Shown: positions 3 through 56,544, counted from the first letter of the stretch. The stretch is 64,000 bases of DNA from Acidimicrobiia bacterium (GCA_035304485.1 DATGPZ010000082.1:570-64569); one strand, 5' to 3'. Program-made: numbers and translations. The notes: generated by a model not told the origin, from the sequence alone.

Positions 3-155
3 GGTGAGGCGGGCACGATCGGATCCGCCCAGACGATCGTCAACGCGGTGGTGGACGCTCTCAGACCGCTGGGTGTGAAGCACGTAGACATGCCGCTGCG
101 TCCCAAACGGGTGTGGGAGGCGATCCAGGCCGCGCGAGCAGGGAGTGACAGCTGA
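3..155 (+). CDS. coxL: Partial CDS (3' end): molybdopterin-binding large subunit of an aerobic CO dehydrogenase / xanthine dehydrogenase family enzyme (CoxL-like)
   Basis: Frame-3 translation GEAGTIGSAQTIVNAVVDALRPLGVKHVDMPLRPKRVWEAIQAARAGSDS* resembles the conserved C-terminus of CoxL/XdhA large subunits. The stop overlaps the start of the next gene (coxM) as TGATG. Confidence 0.55.
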   Translation, partial: GEAGTIGSAQTIVNAVVDALRPLGVKHVDMPLRPKRVWEAIQAARAGSDS

Positions 156-1000
156 TGTATCCGAGAAAGTTCGACTATGTCGCCGCCACCAGCCTCGACG
201 AGGCGGTGTCCGCCCTGGCGAGCAGCGAGTTCGGCAAGGTGATGTCGGGTGGGATGTCGCTGCTCCCGATGATGAAGCTGCGGCTCCTGTCGCCGGAGAC
301 AGTGGTCGACATCGGCAGGATCCCCGGTCTCGACCAGATCAGCGATCGGGGGGACCACGTGGCGATCGGGGCGCTGGTCCGTCATGCCGAGGTCGCCGCA
401 TCCGACCTGCCCCGTGCCCTGACCGATGCCGCTGCCTGGACGGGCGACGTCCAGGTCAGAAACCGTGGCACGACCTGTGGAGCGGTCGCTCACAGCGACA
501 TCGCTGCGGACCAACCCGCCGCCGTGCTGGCGCTGGGGGCGACGATGGTGGCACAGGGACCCAACGGGACTCGGGAGATCGCCGCCGAGGACTTCTTCGT
601 CGACGCCATGACGTCGGCTCTGGAGCCCGAAGAGATCCTGACCGAGATCCGGATCCCCAAGGTGGGCGGCGCCACGGCTTACGACAAGCTCGGCCGACGC
701 GGCGGGCACACCGACTATGCGGTGGCCGGGGCGGCGGCCTGGGTCCAGAAGGACAACGGCTCGGTCTCTGCCTGTCGGGTGGCTCTCACTGGCGTCGGCA
801 CGAAAGCGACCCTGGCGCACGGTGTGGCCGAGGCTCTCGTCGGCACCGACGGGTCGGAGCAGGCCGTGAAGGAGGCGGCGAGCCGGGCCACTGAAGGGGT
901 GACGGTCCTGGAGGACTTGTACGGCTCGGAGGAGTACAAGGCCCACCTGGCCGAGGTCTTCACTCGCCGCGCCCTCACCCAAGCCCTCGCCCAACTGTGA
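155..1000 (+). CDS. coxM: FAD-binding medium subunit of CO dehydrogenase / xanthine dehydrogenase family (CoxM)
   Basis: 281 aa. FAD-binding PCMH-type domain with a CO dehydrogenase flavoprotein C-terminal domain. Start overlaps the coxL stop. Confidence 0.8.
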   Translation: MYPRKFDYVAATSLDEAVSALASSEFGKVMSGGMSLLPMMKLRLLSPETVVDIGRIPGLDQISDRGDHVAIGALVRHAEVAASDLPRALTDAAAWTGDVQVRNRGTTCGAVAHSDIAADQPAAVLALGATMVAQGPNGTREIAAEDFFVDAMTSALEPEEILTEIRIPKVGGATAYDKLGRRGGHTDYAVAGAAAWVQKDNGSVSACRVALTGVGTKATLAHGVAEALVGTDGSEQAVKEAASRATEGVTVLEDLYGSEEYKAHLAEVFTRRALTQALAQL

Positions 1001-1005
1001 GGCAT

Positions 1006-1062
1006 TCTTAAGACCGAAACGGGGCTTAAAACGCCCCGTTTCGGTCGAGAGAATCACACCGC
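1006..1062. repeat. Left terminal inverted repeat of the DUF559 cassette (contains an internal perfect hairpin)
   Basis: ttcttaagaccgaaacggggcttaaaacgccccgtttcggtcgagagaatcac. Its reverse complement recurs at about 2040-2096 with only a few indels/mismatches. The internal hairpin is aaacggggc-ttaaaa-gccccgttt. Confidence 0.6.
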
Positions 1063-1995
1063 AACGAAAGCACCCCGGCGGACCAGACGATTGCGGGCCC
1101 GGTGGATCCGGTCGACCACCACATCGGGCATCGTCCATATCTCGTAGTCCCAGACGACGACCACGGTGTATCCCGCCGCCTCGAGACGGGCGATGCGTTC
1201 GGCGTCCGCCTGTCGATGCGCCCAGGACGTGTGGTATCGCTCGCTGTGGATCTCGACGATGAGCGGGAGGTGGAGGTCGCAGTAGTCGACCCGCCCGATC
1301 CAGGAGGGTCCGTAGATATCGACCTGGCGTCGCAGGGTGGTGATGCCCCCGTCGGCGGCGATGATCTCGAATCGTCGCTCATTGTTGCTCTGGGGTGTCG
1401 GACTGTCATCATCGCGGTCCTCGAGGGCTCTGCGCATGAGACGGAGCCCGTTGCGGCCCTGTCGTGACATCTCCCAAGTGAAGTCCCATGCCTCGGCAAC
1501 GGTCAGGTCCCGATTGGCGAGGAAGTGGTCGAGGACCTGGAGGCCCTTCTGAGGTCCCTCGGATCCAAAGACGGTCAATGTGGTCAGGGCCGGAGCGGTG
1601 ACCGGGATGTCGAAGAGATGGGTCCGCTGTTCTGGAGGGATCCGGGTGAGATGGTGTACCCGGGCGGCCGCCGGGTCGGTGCGTTTGAGAGGCCGGCTCA
1701 CCGAGACATGGACGGGTTCCGGTCGAACGTGTTTCACACCCCACAGGGCAGCCGCGGTCAGATGTGACGCCATGGCGTCGTAGCCGACATCGAGGATCCC
1801 GGCCATCACCGTCTGCCACGGTGACGCTTCCGAGCCTCCAATTCGCAGGACTCTGGGCGTCAGGAACGTCAGGCGGCCGGAGCGGACGAGACGGCGGAGG
1901 GCCTTGCGGTCGTATCCGGCCTCCCGGGTCTGGCGACGGCTGATGAGCCCGTGCTGGCGTGCGGTGATCTCACGGATGGCGTTGAAGTCCGGCAT
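1054..1995 (-). CDS. DUF559 domain protein (Vsr/PD-(D/E)xK-like endonuclease-related)
   Basis: The 572-aa ORF in the track is over-extended. A typical DUF559 protein (313 aa) starts at MPDFNAIREITARQHGLISRRQ and has the conserved C-terminal block RVDYCDLHLPLIVEIHSERYHTSWAHRQADAERIARLEAAGYTVVVVWDYE. It sits between coxM and coxD on the opposite strand. Confidence 0.7.
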   Translation of the reverse strand: MPDFNAIREITARQHGLISRRQTREAGYDRKALRRLVRSGRLTFLTPRVLRIGGSEASPWQTVMAGILDVGYDAMASHLTAAALWGVKHVRPEPVHVSVSRPLKRTDPAAARVHHLTRIPPEQRTHLFDIPVTAPALTTLTVFGSEGPQKGLQVLDHFLANRDLTVAEAWDFTWEMSRQGRNGLRLMRRALEDRDDDSPTPQSNNERRFEIIAADGGITTLRRQVDIYGPSWIGRVDYCDLHLPLIVEIHSERYHTSWAHRQADAERIARLEAAGYTVVVVWDYEIWTMPDVVVDRIHRARNRLVRRGAFVAV

Positions 1996-2039
1996 ACAGG
2001 GCAACCTGTCACAGCCGGATGGCGGTGGGAAGGGGGTCG

Positions 2040-2096
2040 TGATTCTCCGCGTCAGAACGGGGCGTTTCGCGCCCCGTTCTGGTCTTAAGAACGCCA
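2040..2096. repeat. Right terminal inverted repeat of the DUF559 cassette
   Basis: gtgattctccgcgtcagaacggggcgtttcgcgccccgttctggtcttaagaa is the reverse complement of the left repeat, including the outer arms cttaagac and gagaatcac. Confidence 0.6.
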
Positions 2097-2109
2097 CTAG
2101 AGTGAGCGT

Positions 2110-2976
2110 GTGCGGTCGGTTGATGACGTCGTGGCAGCGTTCGAGGAACGCGGATACGTCGCCGACCGGAGCCTGGCGGTTTCGGTGCATCTCGCCCTGG
2201 AACTCGAGCGGCCCCTGTTCCTCGAGGGAGAGGCGGGAGTCGGAAAGACCGAGGTCGCCAAGGTCCTGGCGTCGATCTTCGACGAGCCCTTGATCCGGCT
2301 GCAGTGCTACGAGGGCCTGGACGTCAATCACGCGTTGTACGAATGGGACTACGCCCGCCAGATGCTGGCGATCCGTCTCATCGAGGCGGGGGGCGAGCAC
2401 AGCCACGCCGACGTCTCCGACATCATGTCGCGCGACTACCTGATCGCCCGTCCACTTCTCCAAGCCGTGGAACAGGCGGCGGGCGGTCGCCGGCCCGTGC
2501 TGCTGATCGATGAGCTGGATCGGGCGGACGAGGAGTTCGAGGCGTTCCTCCTCGAGTTGCTGTCCGACTTCCAAGTCACGATCCCCGAGGTAGGAACGAT
2601 CGCGGCCGAACGGCCTCCGATCGTCGTGATCACCTCCAATCGGACACGTGAGATCCACGACGCCCTCAAGCGTCGCTGCATTTACCAGTGGATCGACTAC
2701 CCCGACGTCGATCGGGAGGTGGCGATCGTCCGTCGGCGGATCCCCGATCTCGACGAGAAACTCGCCCGCCATCTGGCCGAGGCCATGAAGGACCTGCGGT
2801 CACTCGACCTGTTCAAGCCTCCGGGCGTGGCGGAGACACTCGATTGGGCACGGGCACTGCAGATTCTCGGAGCCGACGAACTTACCGACGAGGTGACCGA
2901 GGACACCCTGGGTGTGGTCTTGAAGTACCGCGAGGATGTCGAGACCGTCAAAGCGCATCGGGCTGCCTCGCTCTGA
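2110..2976 (+). CDS. coxD: MoxR-family AAA+ ATPase (CoxD-type CO dehydrogenase maturation factor)
   Basis: 288 aa. Walker A GEAGVGKT, Walker B LLIDELDRADEE, and a MoxR C-terminal region. GTG start. Confidence 0.8.
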   Translation: MRSVDDVVAAFEERGYVADRSLAVSVHLALELERPLFLEGEAGVGKTEVAKVLASIFDEPLIRLQCYEGLDVNHALYEWDYARQMLAIRLIEAGGEHSHADVSDIMSRDYLIARPLLQAVEQAAGGRRPVLLIDELDRADEEFEAFLLELLSDFQVTIPEVGTIAAERPPIVVITSNRTREIHDALKRRCIYQWIDYPDVDREVAIVRRRIPDLDEKLARHLAEAMKDLRSLDLFKPPGVAETLDWARALQILGADELTDEVTEDTLGVVLKYREDVETVKAHRAASL

Positions 2977-3099
2977 AGGGCACGAGTCCCCACGGGCGTG
3001 TACTCTCGGCAGAGGGTATGTGGACAACAGGATGCTCGGGGCGTGGACCTCCGATAGGGGCAGTACACCTGCCAGCCACTCGAAGGAGGAAACCCGACC

Positions 3100-4182
3100 G
3101 TGATCGACCCGATCGCCAAACTGCACAGCCCCACGGGCTCCCTCGTCAGCCTCTATGTGAACCGCCGGGCCCAGGCCACCCGCGCAGCCCTCACCCAACT
3201 CTTGAAGAGCCTCTCGCAGGCAAACGGCAACAAGTACCTCCGGCGTGACGCCGATCGCATCTTGCAGCTGGCCGACACCATCGAATCGGACCCTGCGCCT
3301 GCGGCTGCGGTCTTCGCGTCCCATCGAGACGGAATCTTCGAGTTCCTCCCTCTCACCCACGAGGTGGAAGACATCGCCACGGTCGGCCCGCGTCCTCATC
3401 TGCGTCCCCTTCGGTCGCAGCCTCGACCGATGCGGGTCGGGGTCATCGTGGCGGACACAGCTCGGGCCAGGACGTTTGCTATGTCGGGGGGCGTCCTGCA
3501 CGAGTACGGCGAAGAGTTGGTCGCTGAGCGCGGAAAGGAGAACTACGGGGGCTTTTCCGGCTACGAGGAGCAACGGAACCGGGCCCGGGCCGTCGAGCTG
3601 TCGGCCAACCTGTGGCGCCAGGCGGGTCGGCGCCTGCTCGAAGCGCATCGAGACCAGCCGTTGGAGCTCTTGGTCATCGCCGGCCACGACGAGGACTTCG
3701 ATTCGATCGCGGTCGAACTGCACCCCTACCTCCGTCAGCTTCCCCAGGAACGCCTCGTCTTCGACACCGGTGCTTTCAACCAGTCCAGCCTGGCGGAGGG
3801 CGTGGCGGCAGCGGTGGAGAGGGAGCGCCGCAGGCTCTCCGAGGAGCTCTTGGATCGGCTGCTGGCCGAGGCCGGTCGGGGCGGATCCGCCGTCACGGGA
3901 TTGGCGCCCGTGCTCGAGGCATGCAACGCCCACGCCGTCGAGCAACTCGTGGTGGCGGGTCCTTTCGTCAAACCCGGTGTGATGTGCGACGGCTGCGGCT
4001 GGCTCGCCCGGGATGGCGAGACCTGTCCCCTGTGTGAAACGCCTACCTTTCCGATCGATGATGTCGTGTCGGCAGCCATGGATGCGACGGTCGAAGCGGG
4101 GGGAAGGTCCGAAATCGTCCGGGTCGCTAGCCCCCTGGACGCGGACGGAGTCGGGGCCTTCCTTCGCTTCCGTGTTCGCTGA
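3100..4182 (+). CDS. Conserved hypothetical protein; possible eRF1/Pelota-like (baeRF-type) fold with a C-terminal CxxC...CxxC zinc ribbon
   Basis: 360 aa, good coding signal, located between coxD and coxE. C-terminal motif CDGCGWLARDGETCPLC. No confident family assignment from sequence alone. Confidence 0.5.
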   Translation: MIDPIAKLHSPTGSLVSLYVNRRAQATRAALTQLLKSLSQANGNKYLRRDADRILQLADTIESDPAPAAAVFASHRDGIFEFLPLTHEVEDIATVGPRPHLRPLRSQPRPMRVGVIVADTARARTFAMSGGVLHEYGEELVAERGKENYGGFSGYEEQRNRARAVELSANLWRQAGRRLLEAHRDQPLELLVIAGHDEDFDSIAVELHPYLRQLPQERLVFDTGAFNQSSLAEGVAAAVERERRRLSEELLDRLLAEAGRGGSAVTGLAPVLEACNAHAVEQLVVAGPFVKPGVMCDGCGWLARDGETCPLCETPTFPIDDVVSAAMDATVEAGGRSEIVRVASPLDADGVGAFLRFRVR

Positions 4183-4214
4183 ACATCGGTACCGGTTCGC
4201 AGTAGGGGTATGAC

Positions 4215-5324
4215 GTGGCGGGGGCGCTGATTCGGTTCGGGCGTCGTCTGCGGGATGAGGGCATCCCCGTAGGGCCCACCATCGCCGACGATCTGGCGAG
4301 TGCAGTCGACGTCGTCGGCCTGGCATCTGCTGAAGACACCTATCACGCTTTTCGGTCGATATGTGTGTCCAACGTGGATCAGATCCCGACGTTCGATCGC
4401 GTGTTCACCGAAGTGTTCGGGTGGTCGGGGCCTCCCCCCGGCCTCAGCTCGCTGGAAGAGCGCCGCCGGAGTTGGTCGATCGAGAGCGACGAAGGCGGAG
4501 AAGGCGACGGGTCGGAGCCCGAGGAGGAGACGGCTGTCGTGGGTGCCTCCTGGAACGAGCGGCTGGCCGACAAAGACTTCGCCGAGCTCACTCCAGAAGA
4601 AGAAGCTGCGGTTCGGGCCATGATCGCGACCATGATCTGGCGGCCGGCCGACACCCGATCCCGACGTCGCCGGCCCGCCTCGACGGGGGACCGCCCCGAC
4701 CCTCGGCGCACATTGCGGCGGTTGGTGGGAACCGAAGGGGACCTCCTGCTCCCCGCTTACACGGAAAGAAGGATCCGCCGCCGCCCCCTGCTGTTCATCG
4801 CCGACGTTTCCGGCTCGATGGAGCGGTACTCGGAGATGCTGCTCTACTTCGCGCATGCCGCTCGCGGTCGTTTGGGGCGACTGGAGGCGTTCGTCTTCTC
4901 GACCCGCCTGACCCGGATCACACGGCAGTTGGATCGACGCAGCCCGTCCGAGGCCATCGCTAGGGTGGCCGACGCGGTCCACGACTGGTCGGGAGGCACC
5001 CGTATCGGCCAAGCGTTGGCGGAGTTCAACCGGAGGTGGGCCCGGCGAGTGACGACCGGTGGCCCGATCGTCTTGATCGTGTCGGATGGATGGGACCGAG
5101 GTGACCCGGATCTGCTGGCCGAGGAGATGGCCAGGCTCTCGCGGTCGGTCCACCGGGTGGTCTGGCTCAACCCTCTCGCTTCTCGTCCTGGCTTCGCCCC
5201 CGAGACCCGCGGCATGCAGGCTGCCATGCCCTACGTCGATGACCTGCTGGCGGCGGGACGTCTCAGCGATCTCGCTTCCGTCATCGACCTCCTAGAGTCG
5301 GTTCCAGCGAGGAGAGCCAGATGA
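4215..5324 (+). CDS. coxE: VWA-domain protein CoxE (partner of the MoxR ATPase in Mo-Cu cofactor maturation)
   Basis: 369 aa. vWA MIDAS motif DVSGSM, and a CoxE-like N-terminal region. Confidence 0.8.
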
Positions 5325-5629
5325 GAGACGCATTGGCCATACGTCGAGAATGGAAGGAGAACGGCCTCGATGTCGCTTCCGCCACCGTCGTCCGGGTGGC
5401 CGGCCCTGCCCCGCGGCCGGTGGGCTCGCGTATGTTGATCTCGTCGGCGGGAGACATCGAGGGCAGTGTGTCCGGCGGATGCGTGGAGAACGACGTGTTC
5501 CTCCACGCTCAGGAGGTGTTGGCGAGTGGGGAGCCCCGACTCGTCACCTACGGGATATCCGACGACGACGCATTCGAGGTAGGACTCGCTTGCGGCGGCA
5601 CCATCCAGGTGTTCGTAGAGAAATGGTGA
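5321..5629 (+). CDS. xdhC: XdhC/CoxI N-terminal domain ORF (molybdenum cofactor insertion chaperone, N-domain only)
   Basis: 102 aa containing the canonical XdhC_CoxI motifs SGGCVE and [10 protein letters not shown]. It stops 7 nt after the ATG of the following XdhC C-domain ORF, which is in the -1 frame. Confidence 0.6.
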
Positions 5630-6399
5630 CAGAGCCGACGGAGGCCCTGGAGCGGATCCTCGCCGAAGAGGAGTACGGCGCTCAGCTGACCGTCCTGACC
5701 GGACCGGACGCCGGTGCCGTGGCGGTTCTCGACGCTGGTGGCGAAGTGCTCGCCGGTTCGGTCCCCGAGAGCATCCAGGAACCTCTCGTCGCCGATGCCC
5801 TCACCCTGATGGATCGCGAGATGCCGCTGACCGTCTCGTACGGTGAGGTCGATGTGTTCGTGGAGCCTTTGGTTCCCCGCCCCCGATTGGTCATCTTCGG
5901 TGCCGTCCACATCGCTCAGGCCCTGGCCCAGCACGCCTCCTTGCTCGGCTACCACGTCACCGTCTCGGACGCCAGATCGGCGTTCACGACCGAGGAGCGG
6001 TTCCCGGATGTGGACCACCTGGCGGTCGGGTGGCCCGATCAGGTCATCGACCAGATCGTCCTCGATCGGAGGACCTCGATCGTCGTGTTGAGTCACGACG
6101 CCCGTTTCGAGAATCCGCTGTGGCCGCTGATCTTGGAGAGCGACGTCCGCTACATCGGCGCGATGGGCAGCCGGCGAACGGCCGAGCGGCGGCGTGAGCG
6201 ACTACTCGAGGCCGGGTTCGACGCTTCTGCCGTCGACCGGATCCATGGGCCGATCGGTCTCGACATCGGAGCCGAGTCACCGGGGGAGGTCGCGGTGGCG
6301 ATCCTGGCGGAGATGATCTCCGAACACCGCCGACCCCACGAGCCGCTGGAACTCAAAGGCGAGGTGCGTCCCTTGGTCCCAGCTCATCGCGCCGGTTAG
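5623..6399 (+). CDS. xdhC: XdhC C-terminal Rossmann-like domain ORF, preceded by a degenerate second CoxI-like segment
   Basis: MVTEPTE... contains [35 protein letters not shown], typical of the XdhC_C NAD-binding-like domain. Split from the N-domain ORF by a frame change. Confidence 0.6.
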
Positions 6400-6447
6400 C
6401 GTTCACGGTTTCCCCATGATTCGTCTCGTGCACCCGGAGATGCCCGT

Positions 6448-7074
6448 ATGAACATCGCCGCCCTGGTTCTGGCTGCGGGTGGTTCATCGCGGTTGGGGCG
6501 TCCCAAGCAGCTCGAACCGTGGGGCGACACCACGCTTCTCGGACATGTCGTTCGCCAGGTGCGCGACTTTCCCGTCGAAGAGGTGTGGGTGGTTCTGGGC
6601 GCCGAAGCCGATCGAATCCTCGACACCGTGGATCTGGAGGGCTGCGGCGTCATCGAGAACCCCGAGTGGGAGGAGGGGATCGCTTCCTCCCTCCGGGTCG
6701 GGCTCGATGCCCTCACCCAGACCAGCCGGGCGGAAGCGGCCCTCGTGGTCATCGGGGACCAGCCGGACATCGATCGAGGGGTGGTGCAACACCTCGTCGA
6801 GACCTTCTCACGTAGCCCGCGTCCGGTCGCCATCCCGAAGTACCGTTACACGTGGGGGAACCCGGTGATCGTGGACCGGTCGCTGTGGCCACGGCTGATG
6901 AGTCTGGAGGGCGACGACGGAGCAAAGCGATTGTTCAAGGCGCACCCGGAATGGGTCGAGGAGGTATGGACGGATCACCTTCCGCCGCGGGACGTCGACA
7001 CCGAAGCCGACGTCGAAGAACTGCGGCCGAGACGGCTGGGTACCGCTACGGACGGGGGAGAAGAGCGGCGGTAG
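6448..7074 (+). CDS. mocA: MobA-like NTP transferase (molybdenum cofactor cytidylyltransferase, MocA-like)
   Basis: 208 aa. N-terminal LVLAAGGSSRLGRPKQL nucleotide-binding motif. In a cox/xdh cluster context. Confidence 0.75.
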   Translation: MNIAALVLAAGGSSRLGRPKQLEPWGDTTLLGHVVRQVRDFPVEEVWVVLGAEADRILDTVDLEGCGVIENPEWEEGIASSLRVGLDALTQTSRAEAALVVIGDQPDIDRGVVQHLVETFSRSPRPVAIPKYRYTWGNPVIVDRSLWPRLMSLEGDDGAKRLFKAHPEWVEEVWTDHLPPRDVDTEADVEELRPRRLGTATDGGEERR

Positions 7075-9091: not shown

Positions 9092-10105
9092 ATGATCATC
9101 GTCATGAACAATTCTGCCACCGACGCCGAGGTCAAGGCGGTCGTGGAGCGACTCCAGTCGATCGGGTGCGAGGCCCATGTCTCGGTCGGTCAATATCGCA
9201 CGGTGATAGGCGCCCTGGGCGACCGCGAAGCCATCCGCCAGCTGCCCTGGGAGGCGATGGCCGGTGTGGAGAAGGCGGTTCCCGTCATGAAGCCGTTCAA
9301 GTTCGTCTCTCGGGAATTCCAGGCGGAGGACACCGTCATCGAGGTCCGCAATGCCGTGCTCGGCGGGGGCGGTTTCACCGCTATCGCCGGACCCTGTGCC
9401 GTGGAGAGCCGAGACCAACTGTTCCGCACGGCCGAGGCGGTGAAGAAGGCCGGCGCCACCATTCTGCGGGGCGACGCCTTCAAGCCACGTACCTCGCCGT
9501 ACTCGTTCCAAGGAATGGGCGAGGAAGGGCTCGAGCTGTTGGCGGCCGCCCGGGAGGAGTTCGACATGCCTTTCGTCGCCGAGGTCCTCGACCCCAGGGA
9601 CGTCGGCCTGGTCTCGTCCTACGCCGACATCCTGCGGATAGGCACCCGCAACATGGCCAACTTCACCCTTCTCACCGAGGTCGGGCGCCAGGACAAGCCG
9701 GTCCTTCTGAAGCGGGGCTTCACTGCCACCATCGAGGAGTGGTTGAACGCCGCCGAATACGTGTACAAGGAGGGCAACCAGCAGATCATCATGTCCGAGA
9801 GGGGTATTCGCACCTTCGAGACGGCTGCCCGCAACACGCTGGACATCACGGCCGTCCCCCTCTTGAAGGGCATGTCGCATCTGCCGGTCATCGTCGATCC
9901 TTCCCACTCCGGAGGCAAGCGTGAGCTGGTCTCCCCGCTCGCCCGGGCCGCGGTGGCGGTCGGCGCCGACGGGATCATGGTGGATGTGCACCCGACACCC
10001 GATACCGCTCTCGTCGATGGCGCCCAGGCGCTCCTCCCCTCCGAGTTCGTCGAGCTGATGCAGGTCGTCCGATCGATCTCGGAGATCGTCTCGGGAACGA
10101 ATTGA
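9092..10105 (+). CDS. 3-deoxy-7-phosphoheptulonate (DAHP) synthase, type I-beta, with N-terminal ferredoxin-like/ACT-type regulatory domain
   Basis: 337 aa. KDO8PS/DAHPS-family catalytic core (AGPCAVES, KPRTSPYSFQG, DPSH) preceded by an approximately 70-aa regulatory domain. Confidence 0.8.
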   Translation: MIIVMNNSATDAEVKAVVERLQSIGCEAHVSVGQYRTVIGALGDREAIRQLPWEAMAGVEKAVPVMKPFKFVSREFQAEDTVIEVRNAVLGGGGFTAIAGPCAVESRDQLFRTAEAVKKAGATILRGDAFKPRTSPYSFQGMGEEGLELLAAAREEFDMPFVAEVLDPRDVGLVSSYADILRIGTRNMANFTLLTEVGRQDKPVLLKRGFTATIEEWLNAAEYVYKEGNQQIIMSERGIRTFETAARNTLDITAVPLLKGMSHLPVIVDPSHSGGKRELVSPLARAAVAVGADGIMVDVHPTPDTALVDGAQALLPSEFVELMQVVRSISEIVSGTN

Positions 10106-11121
10106 GGGCGACCATCCTCGGCACCGGCCTGATCGGTGCCTCCGTCGGAGCCGGTCTGCGTGAAGCGGGCTGGAAAGTGACCGGTTGGGATCCCGAGCCC
10201 TCGCACCTACGGGAAGCGAGCGAGATGGGAGCGGTGGACGAGATCCTGACCGACTTTCCCGAACGGATCAGCGGCGAGGATCTGGTGGTGTTGGCCGGTC
10301 CGGTCAGGGCCATCCTCGCCTCGCTGGGAGAAATCGAGACCGATGCGCTCGTCACCGACGTCGCCTCGGTCAAGACGTCGGTCGTCTCGGCTTCCCGCCG
10401 GCCCGCCCGCTTCGTGGGTGGTCACCCGATGGCCGGCAGGGAGAGCTCAGGCCCGGGTGCGGCCAGTGCTGCCATGTTCAGGGGGGCGACATGGATCCTG
10501 ACCACGGACGGCGCCTCACCCGATGATCTCGCTACGTTGGAAGAAGTCGTGACGGCTCTGGGGGCGGTCCCGGTCCGCATGACCGCCCAAGCCCACGACG
10601 CGGCCGTGGCGGCCGTCAGCCACGTTCCTCAGGTGGTCGCCTCGGCGCTCGTCAATCTCGTCGCTCGGGAGGACACGGCTCTCTCCCTGGCGGCGGGCGG
10701 CTTTCGGGATCTGACTCGAATCGCACTCTCGGAACCGGCGTGGTGGAGCGACGTCCTGGCCGCCAACCGGGACTCCGTGGCCGGCCTGGTGCGGCGGCTC
10801 ACCGATGAGCTGACCGAATGGGCCGAGAAGATCGAGCGAGGTGATACCGAAGCCATCGCCTCGGGTCTGGAAGCTGCCCGAAGCACCCGGCGGAGCCTGG
10901 CACCGCCCGTGGCCGCCGTCCAGGTCGTACTCGAAGACCGACCGGGCGAGCTGGCGGGAGTCGGCATGGCGCTGGCGGAATCGGGCGTCGACATCCGCGA
11001 TCTCCAACTGCGACACGCCACCCGCGGGGGCGGCGGGGTGTTGACGCTGTCGGTGCGACCCGGTCAGGAGGAAGCACTCACTGAGGCCCTGGCCGAGCGC
11101 GGTTTCCGGCTCGTCGGGTGA
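10102..11121 (+). CDS. tyrA: Prephenate dehydrogenase with C-terminal ACT domain
   Basis: 339 aa. N-terminal Rossmann ILGTGLIGASVG, TyrA core, and a C-terminal ACT-like domain. ATGA-coupled to the DAHP synthase. Confidence 0.75.
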   Translation: MRATILGTGLIGASVGAGLREAGWKVTGWDPEPSHLREASEMGAVDEILTDFPERISGEDLVVLAGPVRAILASLGEIETDALVTDVASVKTSVVSASRRPARFVGGHPMAGRESSGPGAASAAMFRGATWILTTDGASPDDLATLEEVVTALGAVPVRMTAQAHDAAVAAVSHVPQVVASALVNLVAREDTALSLAAGGFRDLTRIALSEPAWWSDVLAANRDSVAGLVRRLTDELTEWAEKIERGDTEAIASGLEAARSTRRSLAPPVAAVQVVLEDRPGELAGVGMALAESGVDIRDLQLRHATRGGGGVLTLSVRPGQEEALTEALAERGFRLVG

Positions 11122-21540: not shown

Positions 21541-21616
21541 GAGCGCGAAACGTTAGAGCTGCGCAGGCCCTACGGCTACTTCATCGGGCCGGGGTCAGAG
21601 GCGATACCGTGGAGAC

Positions 21617-22642
21617 ATGGAAGAGATCCGCCTCACGGCGTTCAGTCACGGCGCTGGTTGAGCCTGCAAGCTCGGCAGCGCCGAGCTGGCACAGGTTCTG
21701 TCGCCGTTGAAAACCCACCCCGCTGTGACCCATCCCGATCTGGTGGTCGGCCTGGGCACGGCTGACGATGCCGGAGTCTTCTTGGTCCCCGGCTCGCCCG
21801 AGCGCGCCCTCGTCCAGACGGTGGATTTCTTCACGCCGATCGTGGACGACCCGGGTGATTGGGGGCGGATCGCGGCTGCCAACGCTCTCTCGGACGTCTA
21901 TGCGATGGGGGGTTCACCTCTGACCGCCCTCCAGCTCCTGGGCTGGCCGCGAGACACGATTCCTTTCGAAGTGGCGACGCAGGTGTTGCGAGGTGGCGCC
22001 GACAAGATGGTCGAGGCCGGGTGCGTGATAGTGGGTGGCCATTCCATCGACGATGCCGAGCCGACCTTTGGCTTCGCCGTGACGGGGATGGTGGCGGTGT
22101 CGGAGGTGGTGACGAATGCAGGGGCGCGACCGGGCGACTCGCTGGTGCTGACCAAGCCTCTCGGGTCGGGCGTGGTCGCCACCGCCCACAAAGCCGGCCG
22201 ATGTCCCCCGGACGTTCTCGAGGAGATGGTCGACGTGATGGCGCGACTCAACCGGGTCGCCGGTGAAGCTCTTGCCTCTCATGGCGCCCACGCAGCCACC
22301 GACGTGACCGGCTTCGGACTGCTGGGCCACCTGTTGGAGATGGTCGACGCCTCGGGTGTGGGCGCCGAGGTCCAAACAGAGGCTGTCCCGGTCGTGGAAG
22401 GCGTTCGTGGGCTCTGGGAGGAGGGGTTCTACCCAGGAGGTAGCCGCCGCAACCTGGAGGCGATCCGAGCCCGGGTGGGAGGTGAGTCTCCGGTTCTCCC
22501 GTTGCTGGCCGACGCCCAAACATCCGGGGGCCTCCTGGTCGCTCTGCCTCCCGATCGGGTGGAGGGGTATGTCGAGGCGGTCCCCGGCGCCACGGTCATC
22601 GGTCGCGTCACGGATCGGCCGGGAACGCTGGACCTCACTTGA
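21617..22642 (+). CDS. selD: Selenide, water dikinase (selenophosphate synthetase) with in-frame UGA selenocysteine codon at 21659-21661
   Basis: The track ORF starts at TTG 21707 and lacks the catalytic N-terminus. Extending upstream in frame to ATG 21617 gives [28 protein letters not shown], which aligns to the E. coli SelD N-terminus ([18 protein letters not shown]) with the UGA at the Cys/Sec17 position. A hairpin agctcggc-agc-gccgagct lies about 6 nt downstream of the UGA. Confidence 0.8.
21662..21690 (+). other. Candidate SECIS-like stem-loop immediately 3' of the selD UGA
   Basis: Perfect 8-bp stem agctcggc/gccgagct starting about 6 nt after the UGA. Confidence 0.45.
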
Positions 22643-22694: not shown

Positions 22695-23120
22695 ATGGAG
22701 CCCCGCGAGCGTCTCCGTCACATCGCCAACGCGCTATCGATCCCCTCGGTCCAGCGTCACATCTTCTTGTGTGCCGGCCAGAGCACGCCGAAGTGTGCGC
22801 CGCGCGAAATCACGGACGAAGTGTGGGCGCATCTCAAGAGCCGGCTCAAGCGACTGGGGCTGGCGACGGCGCCGCCCCGCTGGCGTGACAACCAATCACT
22901 CGAGGCGGATCCGGAACCGCGGGGCGAAGGGCGGGTGCTGCGGAGCAAGGTCGACTGTCTTCGGATATGCGAGTCCGGGCCGATCTGTGTCGTCTATCCG
23001 GAAGGTACCTGGTACTTCGGGGTGACCGTCGAGGTCATGGACCGGATCATCGACGAGCATCTGATCGGAGGCCGACCCGTCACCGACCACGTCTTTGCCA
23101 CAGGAGGCCTGGGATGGTGA
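22695..23120 (+). CDS. Thioredoxin-like [2Fe-2S] ferredoxin family protein
   Basis: 141 aa from MEPRERL. Motifs [13 protein letters not shown] and [20 protein letters not shown] match TRX-like ferredoxins. The longer track ORF is over-extended. Confidence 0.6.
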
Positions 23121-24019
23121 AGTGGCTCCGGCGTGGGCTCGTGGCCTGGGTGTTGGCGCGCTTGTTGGGACCTGCCGTCACCCCGAGTTTCCGACCCGGC
23201 CAGGAGCATCCCTGGCGAGTGCCGGGGCGCACGGTGTTCGTGGGAGACAACGAGTTCCTCGTGCGCGAAGTGGGCGACCCCGAGGCTCCGCCCATCGTTC
23301 TCCTCCACGGTTTGGCGGGGTCCTCGCTGGCCGAGTGGTACCGCGTGGGGCGTCTGCTGGCCACGACCCACCGGGTCGTGATCGTCGACAATCGGAGCCA
23401 CGGGCTCTCACCGCAGAGTCGCGGACGGTTCGAAGTCGAGGACGTGGCGGACGAAGTGGCGGCGATCCTGGACATCCTCGAGGTGGGTCCGGCCACCGTC
23501 GTCGGGTACTCGATGGGCGGCACCATCGCCCAGGCCCTGGCCTACCGCCATCCCGGGCGAGTCAAAGCCCTGGTCCTCATCGCCACGTTCGCCGGCCATC
23601 CGCGCCTGCATCGACTGTTCCGGGTGGCGGGACTGATGCTGGCTCGCGGGTGGGAGCGGCTCACGGGGACGGGCACACCCGAAGTCCGATTCGCCTACCT
23701 GCTCGGTACTGGCGCGGTGGACCGAGAGCACGCTCGCTGGTTGTGGGAAGAGACCCATCGCCGGGACCCGGATGCCGGTGCCCAAGCCGCTTTCGCCATG
23801 ATGCGGTTCGATGGTCGAGAGTGGCTGGGGCGGTTGAAGCTTCCGGTCACGGTCGTGATCCCCTCCCGCGACCAGCTGGTTCCGCCGCTGTGGCAGTACC
23901 GGCTGGCGGGTGAGTTGGCCGACGCCGAGGTCGTCGAGGTGACGGGGGCGCGACATGAGCTGCCCTGGACCCACCCCGAGCTGGTGGCCGAAGTGATCGA
24001 ACGCGCGGCGAAGGTCTGA
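23117..24019 (+). CDS. Alpha/beta-fold hydrolase
   Basis: Start MVKWLRRG. Nucleophile elbow GYSMGG, HGLAGS oxyanion-region motif. ATGGTGA-coupled to the ferredoxin gene. Confidence 0.65.
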
Positions 24020-38018: not shown

Positions 38019-38125
38019 GGTCTCCTCTCAGAACGGGCGGCACCCTCCGTGGCCGGCTGGAGCATCTATTGGGGCGGCCCGCATAGTTTTTTGTGCAGCA
38101 TAAAGAATCATGCCAGGCTACGGCA

Positions 38126-39385
38126 ATGGAATCGGCAGCAGACCGCTCCCGGATCTTGGATCCCTCGCTCCATCCGGAGGGATCTCTGGCCATCGCCTGG
38201 GCCCGGCGGCATTCTCCCGTTCTCACGGGTCTGGTGGCTTCCACGTTCGAAGACGGTTCCCTGGAAGGAGTACGGGTGGCGGTGGTCGTCCACCTGGAGG
38301 CGAAGACGGCCCTCCTCGCCAGTGTGCTGGCCGATGCCGGAGCCGAGGTGGTGGTGGCCGGCAGCAACCCCCATTCCACGCGGGACGAGATCGCGGCGGC
38401 GCTCGTAGAACGAGGAATCGAAGTCCATGCCACCCGGGGCAGCGACTACGGAACCTGGGAGAAGGATTTACTGGCGGTCGCCGATCGCGAACCGATGTAC
38501 ATCGTCGACGACGGTGCCGAGCTCACGATCCGGATCGCCCGGCAGCGTCCCGACCTCTACCGCCGCCTCCGGGGGGTATCCGAGGAGACCACCACCGGCG
38601 TGGAGCGGCTGCGTCGCCTGGAAGCCGAAGGCAATCTCCCCTTCCCGGCGATGGCGGCCAACGACGCCGCTTGCAAGCACCTCTTCGACAACCGCTATGG
38701 AACCGGGCAATCCACCGTCCAGGCGGTGCTCCAACTCACCAACTTCGTCATGGCCGGCAAAGAAGTGGCGGTCGTCGGTTATGGCTGGGTGGGTCGAGGA
38801 ATCGCGACATACGTGCGAGCCATGGGCGGTCGCGTGTCGGTGATCGAGGTCGACCCGGTGAAGGGACTGGAGGCGCTCATGGAGGGCCATGAAGTCGGAT
38901 CGGCGGCTTCGGTCCTCCCCACGGCCGACATCGTCATCACCGCCACGGGCGGCATGCGTGCGATCGGAATGCGTGACTTTCCCCACCTCAAGCCCAACGT
39001 GGTGCTGGCCAATGCCGGTCATCACGATCTCGAGATAGACGTGGCCGCCCTGGAAGAGCAAGCGGGCGCGCCGCGCCAGGTGAGGCCCGGTGTCGATCGC
39101 TACGAGTGGAACGGAAAACCGATCAACGTCCTGTCGAAGGGTGCTCTGGTCAACATCGCCGGAGGCCTCGGGCACCCCATCGAGATCATGGACCTGTCCT
39201 TCTCCGTGCAGGGTCTCTCCCTCCACGAACTCGTCGTCAACGACCTCGATCCGGGAGTCCACATTCTGCCCAAACCTCTCGATGACGCCATCGCCCGGGC
39301 TCGCCTGGAGGCGGAAGGCGTCCACCTCGACTCACTCTCCTCCGAGCAAGTCGACGACATGGGCGACTGGATCGGAGGACGCTGA
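38126..39385 (+). CDS. Adenosylhomocysteinase-like protein A (divergent SAHH paralog)
   Basis: SAHH family blocks are conserved (ISEETTTGV, PAMAANDAACKHLFDNRYG, GYGWVGRGIA, HHDLEID, GHP), but the canonical STQDH block is STRDE. Start taken at MESAADR. Confidence 0.75.
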   Translation: MESAADRSRILDPSLHPEGSLAIAWARRHSPVLTGLVASTFEDGSLEGVRVAVVVHLEAKTALLASVLADAGAEVVVAGSNPHSTRDEIAAALVERGIEVHATRGSDYGTWEKDLLAVADREPMYIVDDGAELTIRIARQRPDLYRRLRGVSEETTTGVERLRRLEAEGNLPFPAMAANDAACKHLFDNRYGTGQSTVQAVLQLTNFVMAGKEVAVVGYGWVGRGIATYVRAMGGRVSVIEVDPVKGLEALMEGHEVGSAASVLPTADIVITATGGMRAIGMRDFPHLKPNVVLANAGHHDLEIDVAALEEQAGAPRQVRPGVDRYEWNGKPINVLSKGALVNIAGGLGHPIEIMDLSFSVQGLSLHELVVNDLDPGVHILPKPLDDAIARARLEAEGVHLDSLSSEQVDDMGDWIGGR

Positions 39386-40656
39386 TGGCCGATCGGACTT
39401 CCGACATCGTCGACCCGTCCTTGGCGGAGGCCGGTCGTTCCCGAATCGACTGGGCGGCCGATTTCATGCCTGCCCTAGCCGCCGTCTCGGCCGACCCGTC
39501 GGCGGAGGTCCTGCGGGGGCGCCGGGTCGGGGTGGTGCTCACGCTCGAGCCCAAGACTGCGAACCTGGCCCTGGCACTCCATCGCTCTGGCGCCGAAGTC
39601 TCGGTCTTCTGTTCGGGCACACACACTTCCGACGACGTCGCAGCGGCGCTCGACCGCGCCGGCGTCGCGACCTTCGCTCGCTCTGACGCCGATGCAGCGG
39701 TGGACCAGAGACTCCTCGATCGGTTCCTCGATCAACGCATCGAGTTCCTCATCGATGACGGGGCCGCCACCGCTCGACACATGCATACCCACCGCCGCGA
39801 TGCTCTGGAGTCCTTGGTGGGCATCGCCGAAGAGACCACCAGCGGTGTTCGTCCCTTGCGAGTCATGGCCGACGAGGGTGCTCTGGCAGTACCCGCGATC
39901 GCCGTGAACGACGCTGCCTGCAAGCAGTTGTTCGACAACGTCTACGGGACTGGCCAGTCGGTCGTCATGACGCTCCTCGACCTCACCAACACCCAGCTGC
40001 AGGGAAAGCTGGTGGTGGTCGTGGGTTACGGGTACGTCGGCAGGGGGATCGCCGACACAGCTCACGCCCTGGGGGCTCGGGTCGTGGTCACGGAGGTCGA
40101 CCCGGTTCGGGCCCTCCAGGCCCTGCACGACGGCTATCGAGTCGAGACCCTCGAGGCCGCCTCCCGAGAGGGGGACGTCTTCTTCACGGCGACGGGTATC
40201 GGGTACAGCCTCACCGGCGACCACATCCGGTCGATGAAAGACGGAGCCATGGTGGCCGTCGGCGGAGCGGGACCTCCCGAGGTGTCACTCGACGGAGGAA
40301 ATCCCGTTGTCAGGGGAGGGTTCGCCCGCTCTCAGGTGCGCGTCCTACAGGTCGCTTCCGACCGGGAGGTGCACCTCATCGCGGACGGCGAGTGCTGCAA
40401 CGTCGCCGCTGCCGAGGGGAATCCGATCGAGATCATGGATCTCTCCCTGGCCGTCCAGTTTCGAGCAGTCGTCTACCTGGCTCAGCACGCTGCCGGCATG
40501 GCGCCTGGGGTCTACCCGGTGCCGCCCGAGGTCGACGACCAAGTCGCTCGTGCCGTTCTCGGAGCCCGGGGGATCGAGATCGATGTTCCGACGGCCGCGC
40601 AGATTTCTCACGCAACCAACTGGAACGAGTCCATCGACGAGAAGGAAGCCAATTGA
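39385..40656 (+). CDS. Adenosylhomocysteinase-like protein B (second divergent SAHH paralog)
   Basis: 423 aa. Same SAHH blocks (AEETTSGV, AVNDAACKQLFDNVYG, GYGYVGRGIA). STQDH is replaced by TSDDV. TGATG-coupled to paralog A. Confidence 0.75.
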   Translation: MADRTSDIVDPSLAEAGRSRIDWAADFMPALAAVSADPSAEVLRGRRVGVVLTLEPKTANLALALHRSGAEVSVFCSGTHTSDDVAAALDRAGVATFARSDADAAVDQRLLDRFLDQRIEFLIDDGAATARHMHTHRRDALESLVGIAEETTSGVRPLRVMADEGALAVPAIAVNDAACKQLFDNVYGTGQSVVMTLLDLTNTQLQGKLVVVVGYGYVGRGIADTAHALGARVVVTEVDPVRALQALHDGYRVETLEAASREGDVFFTATGIGYSLTGDHIRSMKDGAMVAVGGAGPPEVSLDGGNPVVRGGFARSQVRVLQVASDREVHLIADGECCNVAAAEGNPIEIMDLSLAVQFRAVVYLAQHAAGMAPGVYPVPPEVDDQVARAVLGARGIEIDVPTAAQISHATNWNESIDEKEAN

Positions 40657-54748: not shown

Positions 54749-55723
54749 TTATTCGGCGTCTTGGGCGGAGACGGCCCAGGCGATGCCTTCGCTCGGGGAT
54801 TCGATCGCAACTCGCAACCACCATCCGATCTCGGGGCTGCCGTCGTGCCACAGGTACCAGCCGAGATCGTGGACGGCGTCACCGAGCCGATCCGGATCCG
54901 GCGGCCATTCCTCCCCGCCCAACTCGGTTGCCAGCCACCAAGCCGAGAAGCGTCCGGCGGCTCCTCCCCGGCGGCGTCCATGTGCCCCGCCGGAGGCTGC
55001 CGCCCAGGCGATCCAGGCCAGGGCTGTAGCCGGATCCACCCGCCTCAATGCGGCCCTTCGCAGCCCAAGTGCAGCCACCGCCCGCGACGCGTCACCCTCC
55101 ACGCATGTCGCCACGGAGCGTCCGTTGGACGAGTCGACCCAGTGTTCCGTGACCGCCTGCAGCGCCCGGATTCCGTCGGGGTCGTCGACGGGGGGACCGG
55201 GCTCGGGCAGCTCCTCGAAACTCCACTCCGGGAAGGGCGGGGTGGGCTCCTCCACTCGATCCGAGTGATAGATCGGAAATGTATATCGGGACTCCCAGTC
55301 GAGGAGCCGGAGGGGCAACTCCATGATCATCGAGTCGACGGATGCTCCCTCCAGGTCTTCGCCTCTCACCACCCTCTCATGAGCCACGAAGGCGCGTTCG
55401 GGGCCATCTTCCAGATGGGCGTCCAAATCGTCCCACGTGAGTCTGCCGGCGACCACCTCTGGCAGTGGCCCGAGGGTGAAGCGGGTGGGCCCCTCGGTGA
55501 CGGCCGGCCCGGCCGACTCCGGCGGACCGTCCAGCGCCAGGCGGTAGCGGATGTACTCGGGGATCGCCCAGAGTTGCTTGCCGCGCTCTACCGCTTCCTC
55601 ACACAGCAGGCGAACGGTGCGCATCGTCTGCCAATCCCGTCCCTGGACGAGGCCGTCCACGATCCTGACCAACTCGTCGGTGTCAGAACCCTCGATGGCT
55701 CTCCGGATCCTCTCGTCGGTCAT
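54749..55723 (-). CDS. Conserved hypothetical protein (Trp-rich C-terminus)
   Basis: 324 aa with consistent coding signal. No recognisable domain. ATGA-coupled to the downstream sulfurtransferase. Confidence 0.5.
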   Translation of the reverse strand: MTDERIRRAIEGSDTDELVRIVDGLVQGRDWQTMRTVRLLCEEAVERGKQLWAIPEYIRYRLALDGPPESAGPAVTEGPTRFTLGPLPEVVAGRLTWDDLDAHLEDGPERAFVAHERVVRGEDLEGASVDSMIMELPLRLLDWESRYTFPIYHSDRVEEPTPPFPEWSFEELPEPGPPVDDPDGIRALQAVTEHWVDSSNGRSVATCVEGDASRAVAALGLRRAALRRVDPATALAWIAWAAASGGAHGRRRGGAAGRFSAWWLATELGGEEWPPDPDRLGDAVHDLGWYLWHDGSPEIGWWLRVAIESPSEGIAWAVSAQDAE

Positions 55724-56544
55724 CGCGGGTCGGGGCCTGTGACCACGGGGAGCTCGGTGCGCGACCAGTCGGAGAACGAGCCCGGGTAGAGCCGAGGTCG
55801 TGGAAGCCCGGCGATCTCCATGGCGAGGGCGACATGGCAGGCCGTCACGCCGCTTCCACAGGAGACGATCACCGGCCGACGGTCCGCTCCCAAGGCGGAG
55901 AGCTGGTCCCGGAGTGTGGGTGCGGCCTTGAATCGCCCGTTGACGTCGAGGCTCTCCTCCCAGGGGTAGTTCACTGCGCCCGGAATATGACCTGCCTTGG
56001 GGTCGACGGGTTCGGTTTCGCCTCGATAGCGGTCGGGTGATCGAGCGTCCAGGAGGAGGTGGCTCCTCTCGTGTCTCACGAGCTCACGGTCCACTACGCC
56101 GGTGAAACCACGGGACGGCGCGGGATAGTGGGCGGGAATCGGTGCCTGCTCTCCCGATTCGACGCGGAAGCCGGCGTCGACCCATGCGTTCCATCCGCCG
56201 TCCAGGACCGCGACGTGGCCACGGTGGCCGATCGCCTCGAGCATCCACCAGAGGCGAGCCGCCACCCCGCCGCCGGTGTCGTCGTATACGACGACGTCGT
56301 CCCCTGGACGCAGACCGAACCCACCGAGTGTGGAGGCGAAATCGGCTGGGTCGGGGAGGGGATGACGTCCCGGCCCGGTGCCTGTGAGATCACGTTCCAC
56401 GTCCACGAACAAGGCACCTGGGATGTGTGCCTCCAGATAGCGCTTACGACCCGCCTCCGGATCGGTCAGGTCCCAACGGAGGTCGAACAGCGCTACTCGA
56501 CCGAGACTCTCGAGAAGCCGTGGGGCGTCGATCAGCGGACTCAC
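55720..56544 (-). CDS. Tandem-rhodanese sulfurtransferase (thiosulfate/3-mercaptopyruvate sulfurtransferase)
   Basis: 274 aa. Active-site loop CGSGVTACH. Confidence 0.8.
   Translation of the reverse strand: MSPLIDAPRLLESLGRVALFDLRWDLTDPEAGRKRYLEAHIPGALFVDVERDLTGTGPGRHPLPDPADFASTLGGFGLRPGDDVVVYDDTGGGVAARLWWMLEAIGHRGHVAVLDGGWNAWVDAGFRVESGEQAPIPAHYPAPSRGFTGVVDRELVRHERSHLLLDARSPDRYRGETEPVDPKAGHIPGAVNYPWEESLDVNGRFKAAPTLRDQLSALGADRRPVIVSCGSGVTACHVALAMEIAGLPRPRLYPGSFSDWSRTELPVVTGPDPR

Follow-up and report, generated by a model that had tools for sequence, protein, structure and literature searches.

An Acidimicrobiia selD gene with an in-frame UGA in an overlooked N-terminal segment very probably encodes a Sec-type selenophosphate synthetase

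Sec-type SelD is textbook selenium biology, and both Cys17 and Lys20 are essential in E. coli SelD. In known Sec-type SelD proteins of bacteria and archaea, the UGA occupies the same column of the same family, the SECIS lies inside the coding sequence, and Cys-type orthologues are found in related species. The earliest description of the Sec form is that of Guimaraes et al. in 1996, as cited in bioRxiv 10.64898/2026.04.03.716425, and SelD and FdhA are the most widespread bacterial selenoprotein families (PMC1794560). In the Actinomarinales, an order of the Acidimicrobiia, SelD takes the Sec form in about half of the genomes and the Cys form in the rest (bioRxiv 10.64898/2026.04.03.716425). The bacterial SECIS model describes a loop of 3–9 nt on a stem of 4–16 bp, with a G in the first two loop positions (usually GG or GU), a UGA-to-loop distance of 16–37 nt, and a minimum free energy (MFE) of −7.5 kcal/mol or lower (PMC13188914).

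We analyzed a stretch of 64,000 nucleotides from an Acidimicrobiia bacterium, hereafter the window, which has a GC content of 65.7% and carries a selD gene that is very probably of this kind. Nothing essential distinguishes this gene from known Sec-type selD genes, except that the window copy is publicly annotated only as a protein of 305–311 aa. Its catalytic loop is the same as that of the E. coli and Aquifex enzymes (...SHGAG-C/U-xCK...), with the UGA of the window in place of the E. coli Cys17. The likeness to the Actinomarinales lies in the shared class and in the occurrence of both forms at one syntenic site: Sec-type in the window and in the TGA orthologue loci of other lineages (L102, L104, L106, L197, L198, and L199), and Cys-type in L001. 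The gene order in which greA is followed by selD, the ferredoxin-like gene, and the hydrolase gene was common to the five TGA lineages on contigs showing neighbours; the TGA locus of L197, on a 1.6-kb contig, stands outside the five with confirmed synteny. By contrast with the streamlined marine genomes of the Actinomarinales (~1.1 Mb), the window lineage has ~66% GC and large contigs. In addition, selA, selB, and selC were shown in complete Actinomarina genomes, whereas none of the three was found in the 64 kb plus flanks of the window lineage. The features of the gene are as follows.

21617–22642, plus strand: full selD coding sequence, 341 codons plus stop with predicted Sec at codon 15, based on translation, TIGR00476, and the match to E. 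coli SelD.
21617–21706, plus strand: N-terminal segment absent from ORF and gene calls, containing the glycine-rich catalytic loop SHGAG-U-ACK.
21659–21661, plus strand: in-frame UGA, codon 15, presumably read as Sec, aligned with E. coli Cys17.

The ATG at 21617–21619 is the first start codon of the open frame, and the mechanically called ORF begins at TTG 21707 and ends at the stop codon 22640–22642. Public gene calls at the locus start either at this TTG (311 aa) or at GTG 21725 (305 aa, P0229). When the UGA was written as C, the 341-aa protein scored 391.9 bits against the TIGR00476 selD equivalog (cut-off 125) and covered profile positions 1–309 of 311, as compared with 355.5 bits for the short 311-aa ORF, whose match begins at profile position 30; the N-terminal segment is worth +36 bits. 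The protein also passed NF002098 (354.7 bits vs a cut-off of 299), and the PurM-like pair AIRS (PF00586) and AIRS_C (PF02769) is on record for the called product. Among solved structures, the best match was E. coli SelD (3u0o, E = 2.7e-77, residues 3–321), and Aquifex aeolicus SelD (PDB 2yye and 2zod) showed full-length homology (E = 3.4e-59). In the alignment to these structures, the UGA column corresponds to E. coli Cys17 and to the equivalent Aquifex position. SHGAG-U15-AC-K18 of the window aligns residue for residue with SHGAG-C17-GC-K20 of E. coli, including the conserved Lys three residues after the UGA position.

An earlier sequence-only reading of this DNA had placed the start at ATG 21617, noted the in-frame UGA, and pointed out that an ORF starting at TTG 21707 lacks the catalytic loop, all of which are present in the sequence. 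It had further assigned the N-terminal extension to SelD and the UGA to the Cys17 site; the TIGR00476 match from profile position 1 (a gain from 355.5 to 391.9 bits) and the 3u0o alignment agree with both assignments. Its central proposal, that selD encodes a selenoprotein, was borne out by the family match, by the Cys17 column, and by retention of both the TGA and the RNA that follows it in six other lineages. On this comparative evidence, selD is very probably a genuine Sec-type selenide, water dikinase (selenophosphate synthetase) gene whose UGA lies in the missed N-terminal segment.

To follow the TGA across assemblies, we used an exact look-up of the GreA protein, which identified 22 contigs carrying the locus. 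Assemblies containing this species include ENA ERZ27256727, ERZ23398518, ERZ23575717, ERZ23579493, ERZ23329302, and ERZ23461240. Identity to the window was ~99.8% in six independent ENA assemblies, with 20–44 mismatches each per 12–20 kb, and the ATG, the TGA, and the hairpins described below were identical in all six of these same-species assemblies, which excludes a base-calling error. Because a short gene call is an imperfect proxy for TGA (L094 and L100 are TGT genes that were called short) and is no proof of it, clusters were verified at the DNA level. The selD DNA was fetched for six short-called clusters (P0269, P0274, P0253, P0248, P0249, and P0261), and each had TGA at the same codon, after a conserved M-x-x-(I/V)-RLT-x-(F/Y)-SHG-(A/S)-G. 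TGA was thus found in 7/7 short-called lineages of the window's clade checked in this way. Over the full gene, SelD of L102, L104, and L106 shares 72–74% amino acid and 69–71% nucleotide identity with that of the window, and in all three the frame stays open both before and after the TGA. An inactivating lesion would not persist across ~30% nucleotide divergence with the frame kept intact, which argues that the gene is not a pseudogene.

The codon at the UGA column was then tallied more widely. Among the genome loci listed as matches to the query peptide HGAGCACK, 74/80 had TGY and 6/80 had TGA. In metagenome data, where the query was the post-UGA part of the protein only, 66 of the 75 readable loci among the matches listed had TGA and nine had TGY, indicating that Sec-type SelD is very common. 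The closest SelD proteins in reference genomes, among the matches listed, all came from Acidimicrobiia metagenome-assembled genomes, with at most 67% identity. An apparent finding that the closest relatives are all Cys-type was discarded as an artefact of the Cys-favouring query HGAGCACK: in a protein search, the nearest SelD homologues (66–74% identity) comprised full-length Cys-type proteins together with many clusters called at 296–315 aa.

We next considered the sequence 3' of the UGA, which contains the following features.

21662–21703, plus strand: 42-nt stretch in which synonymous change is suppressed, from comparison with Sec- and Cys-type orthologues.
21669–21687, plus strand: hairpin H1, 8 bp with loop AGC, MFE −14.3 kcal/mol.
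21688–21705, plus strand: hairpin H2, GGCACAG-GUU-CUGU(C)GCC with a bulged C at 21702, MFE −7.7 kcal/mol.
21695–21697, plus strand: GUU, the apical loop of H2, 33 nt downstream of the UGA.

In the 42 nt after the UGA, Sec-type orthologues had two or three differences from the window, in genes that differ by about 30% of nucleotides overall. By contrast, the syntenic Cys-type (TGT) orthologue L001 had 13 differences, with neighbour genes as close to those of the window as are the neighbours at Sec-type loci. Among the window, L102, L104, and L106, the amino acids of the 15 codons from the TGA were all identical, and so were 91% of codon comparisons, as against 52% in the rest of selD and 60% in the 14 upstream codons; codon columns identical in all four genes made up 20% overall. 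In 13-codon sliding windows, 11/13 columns were identical in the four genes only over the TGA and the codons that follow it, and most other positions gave 0–5. When three further lineages were added, variation was confined to the Ser codon of the H1 loop, to loop position 3 in H2, and to a small number of stem substitutions, all of which keep pairing across lineages (U for C opposite G, and G for A opposite U). These comparisons point to selection at the RNA level downstream of the UGA in TGA-type genes.

The arms of H1 are AGCTCGGC (21669–21676) and GCCGAGCT (21680–21687). The perfect 8-bp stem described in the sequence-only reading is therefore real, starting 7 nt after the TGA rather than about 6; its proposed role as the bacterial SECIS element is less probable, given that it is paired equally in Cys-type genes (see below). 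The fold suggested in the same reading also yielded a structure, with an MFE of −26.8 kcal/mol for 21656–21715, only modestly beyond what shuffling gives (z = −1.9; 9/200 shuffled sequences at least as stable), so that the comparative evidence carries the case for the element. Over 48 nt downstream, the MFE of the window was −25.0 kcal/mol, compared with −15.6 ± 4.3 kcal/mol in Cys-type genes. We rejected downstream folding energy as a sole discriminator between the two types, because 3/74 Cys-type genes were equally stable. The single-sequence MFE favours, over H1 plus H2, a long hairpin with a lower stem around H1; this long hairpin (lower stem columns 2–8/34–40 enclosing H1) was also rejected, as it showed no covariation beyond column conservation in Sec-type genes.

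For the comparative analysis, distinct 60-mers from the matches listed (73 Sec-type and 82 Cys-type) were aligned in codon register without gaps. The two sets differ in phylogeny and were shaped by the search patterns, so that group statistics overstate independence, and coding constraints contribute to the pairing patterns in the comparison. H2 was paired in 77.7% of cells in the 73 Sec-type genes listed, against 65.2 ± 1.2% after shuffling, a value reached in 0/500 shuffles; the same genes had 57 double-sided changes vs 23 expected and a covariation score of 0.339 vs 0.178. In the 82 Cys-type genes listed, by contrast, H2 pairing was 47.6% vs 48.2% when shuffled. The H2 loop was GUU, GUC, GUA, or GGUCU at +35/36 in 46/73 Sec-type selD genes among the matches listed. 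H1 behaved differently: it was paired in 67.6% of Sec-type and 67.7% of Cys-type cells in the same two sets, and its covariation was weak (19 double changes vs 16.5 expected). The H1 loop corresponds to a Ser codon that varies freely among orthologues (AGC, AGT, TCC, or TCG), and the hairpin is also present in the Cys-type genes L001 and L002. Its occurrence in Cys-type genes is explained by the codons for K-L-G-x-x-E-L (AAG CTC GGn ... nnC GAG CTG), which are self-complementary. L001 retains H1, but its H2 region has a folding energy of just −0.4 kcal/mol.

H2 agrees with the bacterial SECIS model in all four respects, with its GUU loop, its distance of 33 nt, its stem, and its energy; the energy margin is small (−7.7 against a threshold of −7.5 kcal/mol, with a bulge in the stem). 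Like the bSECISearch model and the fdhF SECIS, H2 has a 3-nt loop that starts with G-U, is closed by G-C, and stands on an upper stem of at least 4 bp. It differs from the model in that its loop lies close to the upper limit of the UGA-to-loop distance and a stronger hairpin, H1, stands between it and the UGA. The CAGGUUCUG apex of H2 also resembles the GCAGGUCUGC apex of the E. coli fdhF SECIS. A search of the window against Rfam returned no SECIS match and no other RNA family. This result carries little weight, because the SECIS models in Rfam are for the most part eukaryotic and cover bacterial elements poorly (bioRxiv 10.64898/2026.04.03.716425). Taken together, the Sec-specific pairing and covariation favour H2, with moderate confidence, as the core of the SECIS.

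The alternative that fares best keeps the gene Sec-type and moves the element, so that the SECIS would be H1, or a composite of H1 and H2, instead of H2 alone. In the window's clade H1 is a perfect 8-bp stem of −14.3 kcal/mol, its synonymous sites are conserved along with those of H2, its mean MFE is lower in Sec-type genes than in Cys-type ones (−7.4 vs −4.1 kcal/mol), and the AGC loop of the window has G at position 2. Against the SECIS rules, H1 has the stem and the energy, but the 15 nt between the UGA and its loop is just under the 16–37 nt range, and the loop is UCC or UCG in orthologues. Together with the equal pairing in Cys-type genes and the weak covariation, these features leave H1 as a possible but rather doubtful SECIS. 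It may instead serve as a clade-specific helper or spacer.

With H2 as the preferred core, we propose the following model. Translation would start at ATG 21617, and the UGA at 21659–21661 would be recoded to Sec within the glycine-rich catalytic loop, at the site of E. coli Cys17. The recoding signal would be an RNA element within the coding region, just 3' of the UGA. In this element, H2 (21688–21705) would be the most likely SelB-binding core, presenting its GUU loop 33 nt after the UGA, and H1 (21669–21687), between the UGA and H2, would be largely a by-product of the K-L-G-S-A-E-L codons that may act as a spacer or helper.

Such recoding calls for selA, selB, and selC. An ARAGORN search of the 64-kb window detected no tRNA-Sec and no tRNA of any kind, and a Pfam map of its ~54 predicted proteins contained no SelA and no SelB. 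Exact-protein look-ups led to longer contigs, on which the flanks beyond the window (3.9 kb to the left and 7.6 kb to the right) likewise lacked selA, selB, and tRNA-Sec. In relatives, tRNA-Sec adjoins selD (L019, L022, and L023), and in L023 selD, tRNA-Sec, selB, and selA stand in a row. Candidates for the SelA of this species, retrieved with the SelA of a relative as the query (P0209, P0088, and P0090), belonged to other samples or species and were set aside. The tetranucleotide correlation of L188 with the window was 0.969, compared with at least 0.987 within the species. The conserved UGA and the SECIS make a strong case that selA, selB, and selC would be encoded elsewhere in this genome.

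The lack of this machinery in the window and its flanks is what speaks for decoding of the UGA without SelA, SelB, and tRNA-Sec, through near-cognate suppression or a code reassigned to Trp, Cys, or Gly. We consider this very unlikely. TGA ends most of the ~57 predicted genes in the window and is the usual stop here, indicating that the genetic code is not reassigned. Moreover, SelB-dependent recoding predicts a conserved, covarying hairpin specific to TGA-type genes, which plain read-through does not, and tRNA-Sec, selB, and selA exist in relatives of the class.

Highly improbable, too, is a real start downstream of the UGA, at TTG 21707 or GTG 21725, that would yield a shortened but functional SelD-like enzyme without Sec. 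All public gene calls agree on such a product, of 311 or 305 aa. It would nevertheless be without the glycine-rich loop, the Sec/Cys residue, and the Lys residue, and it loses 36 bits against the family model. The sequence-only reading had named orthologues that start downstream of the UGA with a Cys-free N terminus, or an upstream region not conserved at the protein level, as evidence that would count against its selenoprotein proposal. The 14 codons 5' of the TGA are conserved at the protein level in all orthologues and in Cys-type homologues. Finally, a nonsense mutation or base-calling error that makes selD a pseudogene is barely credible: the closest matches in the first genome scan were Cys-type only (59–67% identity, among the matches listed) and no Sec machinery was found nearby, but six independent assemblies share the TGA, which recurs in six other lineages with intact frames and suppressed downstream synonymous change, and the Cys-only neighbourhood was the HGAGCACK artefact, the window's clade being mostly short-called or TGA-type.

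To examine how the Sec and Cys forms are related, we constructed a neighbor-joining (NJ) tree without support values from the 120 nearest SelD proteins and the translated loci. In this tree, the window's clade contained 27 short calls, four confirmed TGA genes, and six Cys-type genes, and the Cys-type L001 group was nested inside the clade. The simplest reading is that the Sec form would be ancestral and was later converted from Sec to Cys. Zhang et al. (2006) reported Sec-to-Cys as the direction for SelD and described remnant SECIS-like structures after Cys codons (PMC1794560). L001 fits this picture, having kept H1 and lost H2. A more speculative reading, which we regard as improbable, is that the clade uses a two-hairpin recoding signal, in which the palindrome imposed by the codons of H1 would have been perfected and recruited beside H2. 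If this were true, Cys-type genes would carry half a SECIS, which would explain how Sec and Cys are swapped in place at one locus. The same data would also allow reversion from Cys to Sec, which the 2006 survey did not observe for SelD (PMC1794560).

The surroundings of selD were also surveyed. Upstream and divergent lie mgtE and greA. The selD operon consists of selD, a gene for a small Cys-rich relative of thioredoxin-like [2Fe-2S] ferredoxins, and an alpha/beta hydrolase gene, and is followed by a penicillin amidase gene and then by the cox operon; this Acidimicrobiia lineage carries cox and CO-dehydrogenase-type operons. A search upstream of selD for a sigma-70 consensus promoter found none. 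One conserved element was noted in the intergenic region.

21605–21610, plus strand: conserved TACCGT, ending 6 nt before the ATG, a possible −10 hexamer of the TANNNT type.

TACCGT lies within the block CGATACCGT, which is kept in the orthologous intergenic regions of both Sec- and Cys-type loci. If it is a −10 hexamer, it would suggest a leaderless selD mRNA. Neither YqeB nor YqeC, which together with SelD mark the selenium-cofactor trait of molybdenum hydroxylases, was found within the window; the XdhC-like and MocA-like proteins encoded at 5350–7071 gave sub-cut-off matches to the XdhC and MocA models and none to YqeB or YqeC. A search of the window for other TGA-interrupted genes yielded antisense shadow frames and neighbouring genes only.

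The selD gene of the window is a previously mis-called Sec-type SelD. The arrangement is well known and is routinely shortened by gene callers, and known selenium biology is unchanged by this example. The public calls of this gene and of its relatives in the clade encode proteins of 296–315 aa without the catalytic loop. Pipelines that rely on such calls would score the organisms as SelD-defective, or Sec decoding would be overlooked. The comparison of the two hairpins further indicates that a perfect stem after a UGA does not by itself indicate a SECIS, and that comparison with Cys-type genes is what identifies the Sec-specific hairpin. For the organism, the gene would mark an uncultured aerobic Acidimicrobiia lineage as a Sec user, in which other selenoprotein genes are likely to have been mis-called as well.

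Downstream of selD, the window carries two further genes:

22695-23120 (+), small Cys-rich ORF, 3' of selD
23117-24019 (+), alpha/beta hydrolase gene

The order selD, Cys-rich ORF, alpha/beta hydrolase is kept in the window, in the syntenic locus L001, which has a Cys-type selD, and in the Sec-type loci L102, L104, L106 and L199; across Acidimicrobiia, the arrangement was found with both types of selD. The conserved Cys-rich product spans 141-154 aa across loci and is a distant relative of thioredoxin-like [2Fe-2S] ferredoxins that does not reach the family cut-offs. Neighboring genes of this trio overlap by 4 nt in several loci, which suggests that the three genes form an operon.

Upstream, selD is separated from the divergent greA by a short region:

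21541-21616, greA-selD intergenic region (window)

Two blocks in this region are kept in both Sec-type and Cys-type orthologous loci: ACG(A/T)TAG, at about 21550-21557, and CGATACCGT, at 21602-21610. Within the latter, TACCGT is similar to a TANNNT -10 hexamer; its end is 6 nt 5' of the selD ATG. So short a distance between a -10-like element and the start codon would suggest that the selD mRNA is leaderless, and ACG(A/T)TAG may serve greA as the corresponding signal. A search for a sigma-70 consensus promoter found none.

Short selD calls also occurred at a Cys-type gene of another Acidimicrobiia species (L091-L100). This one TGT-containing gene is called as 347 aa in most assemblies and as 305 aa in two:

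L094 and L100, about 9590-10633 (-), selD, Cys-type (TGT), called short

Since these TGT genes were called at 305 aa, an in-frame TGA is not always behind a short selD call.

Elsewhere in the window are two genes read in one frame, the first ending in TGA, along with a rhodanese gene and a tandem pair:

56831-57676 (+), 5'-3' exonuclease gene, TGA stop
57686-58414 (+), Ub-Mut7C/Mut7-C RNase gene
55720-56544 (-), two-domain rhodanese, 3-mercaptopyruvate sulfurtransferase-like
38093-39385 (+), S-adenosylhomocysteine-hydrolase-like gene, first of the pair (AdoHcyase and AdoHcyase_NAD matches)
39385-40656 (+), S-adenosylhomocysteine-hydrolase-like gene, second of the pair (AdoHcyase and AdoHcyase_NAD matches)

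The exonuclease TGA is followed after 9 nt by the RNase gene; public calls treat the two as separate genes, and the TGA showed no sign of being a Sec site. The rhodanese, 33 kb away from selD, matched the selenite/tellurite-reduction rhodanese ExtH weakly (E = 2.7e-06).

A molybdenum hydroxylase operon extends into the left flank:

155-7074 of the window, plus 1014-3913 of the left flank (L087), CoxSML-type molybdenum hydroxylase operon

It is complete, with 2Fe-2S, MoCo-binding and FAD subunits. A baeRF-family protein and maturation genes of the AAA, CoxE-VWA, XdhC and MocA-like kinds accompany it, and the cluster also contains an AbiEi/DUF559 gene. The selenium-cofactor trait is marked by maturation genes of the YqeB/YqeC type, to which these do not belong.

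Three Cys-type relatives have tRNA-Sec directly 3' of selD:

L019 1037-1131, tRNA-Sec, adjoining selD
L022 3232-3326, tRNA-Sec, adjoining selD
L023 11050-14307, tRNA-Sec, then selB (596 aa) and selA (447 aa), 3' of selD

The L091-L100 species has the order selA-selB-dsrE-selD. Just 5' of selA, all sister assemblies of L091 encode an 835-aa DAO/FAO_M/GCV_T dehydrogenase; L091 itself (NCBI MAG GCA_036276875.1) has no gene on record at this span (3301-6001). Taken against the window, these arrangements indicate that some lineages keep the sel genes grouped around selD and that in the window's lineage they are dispersed.
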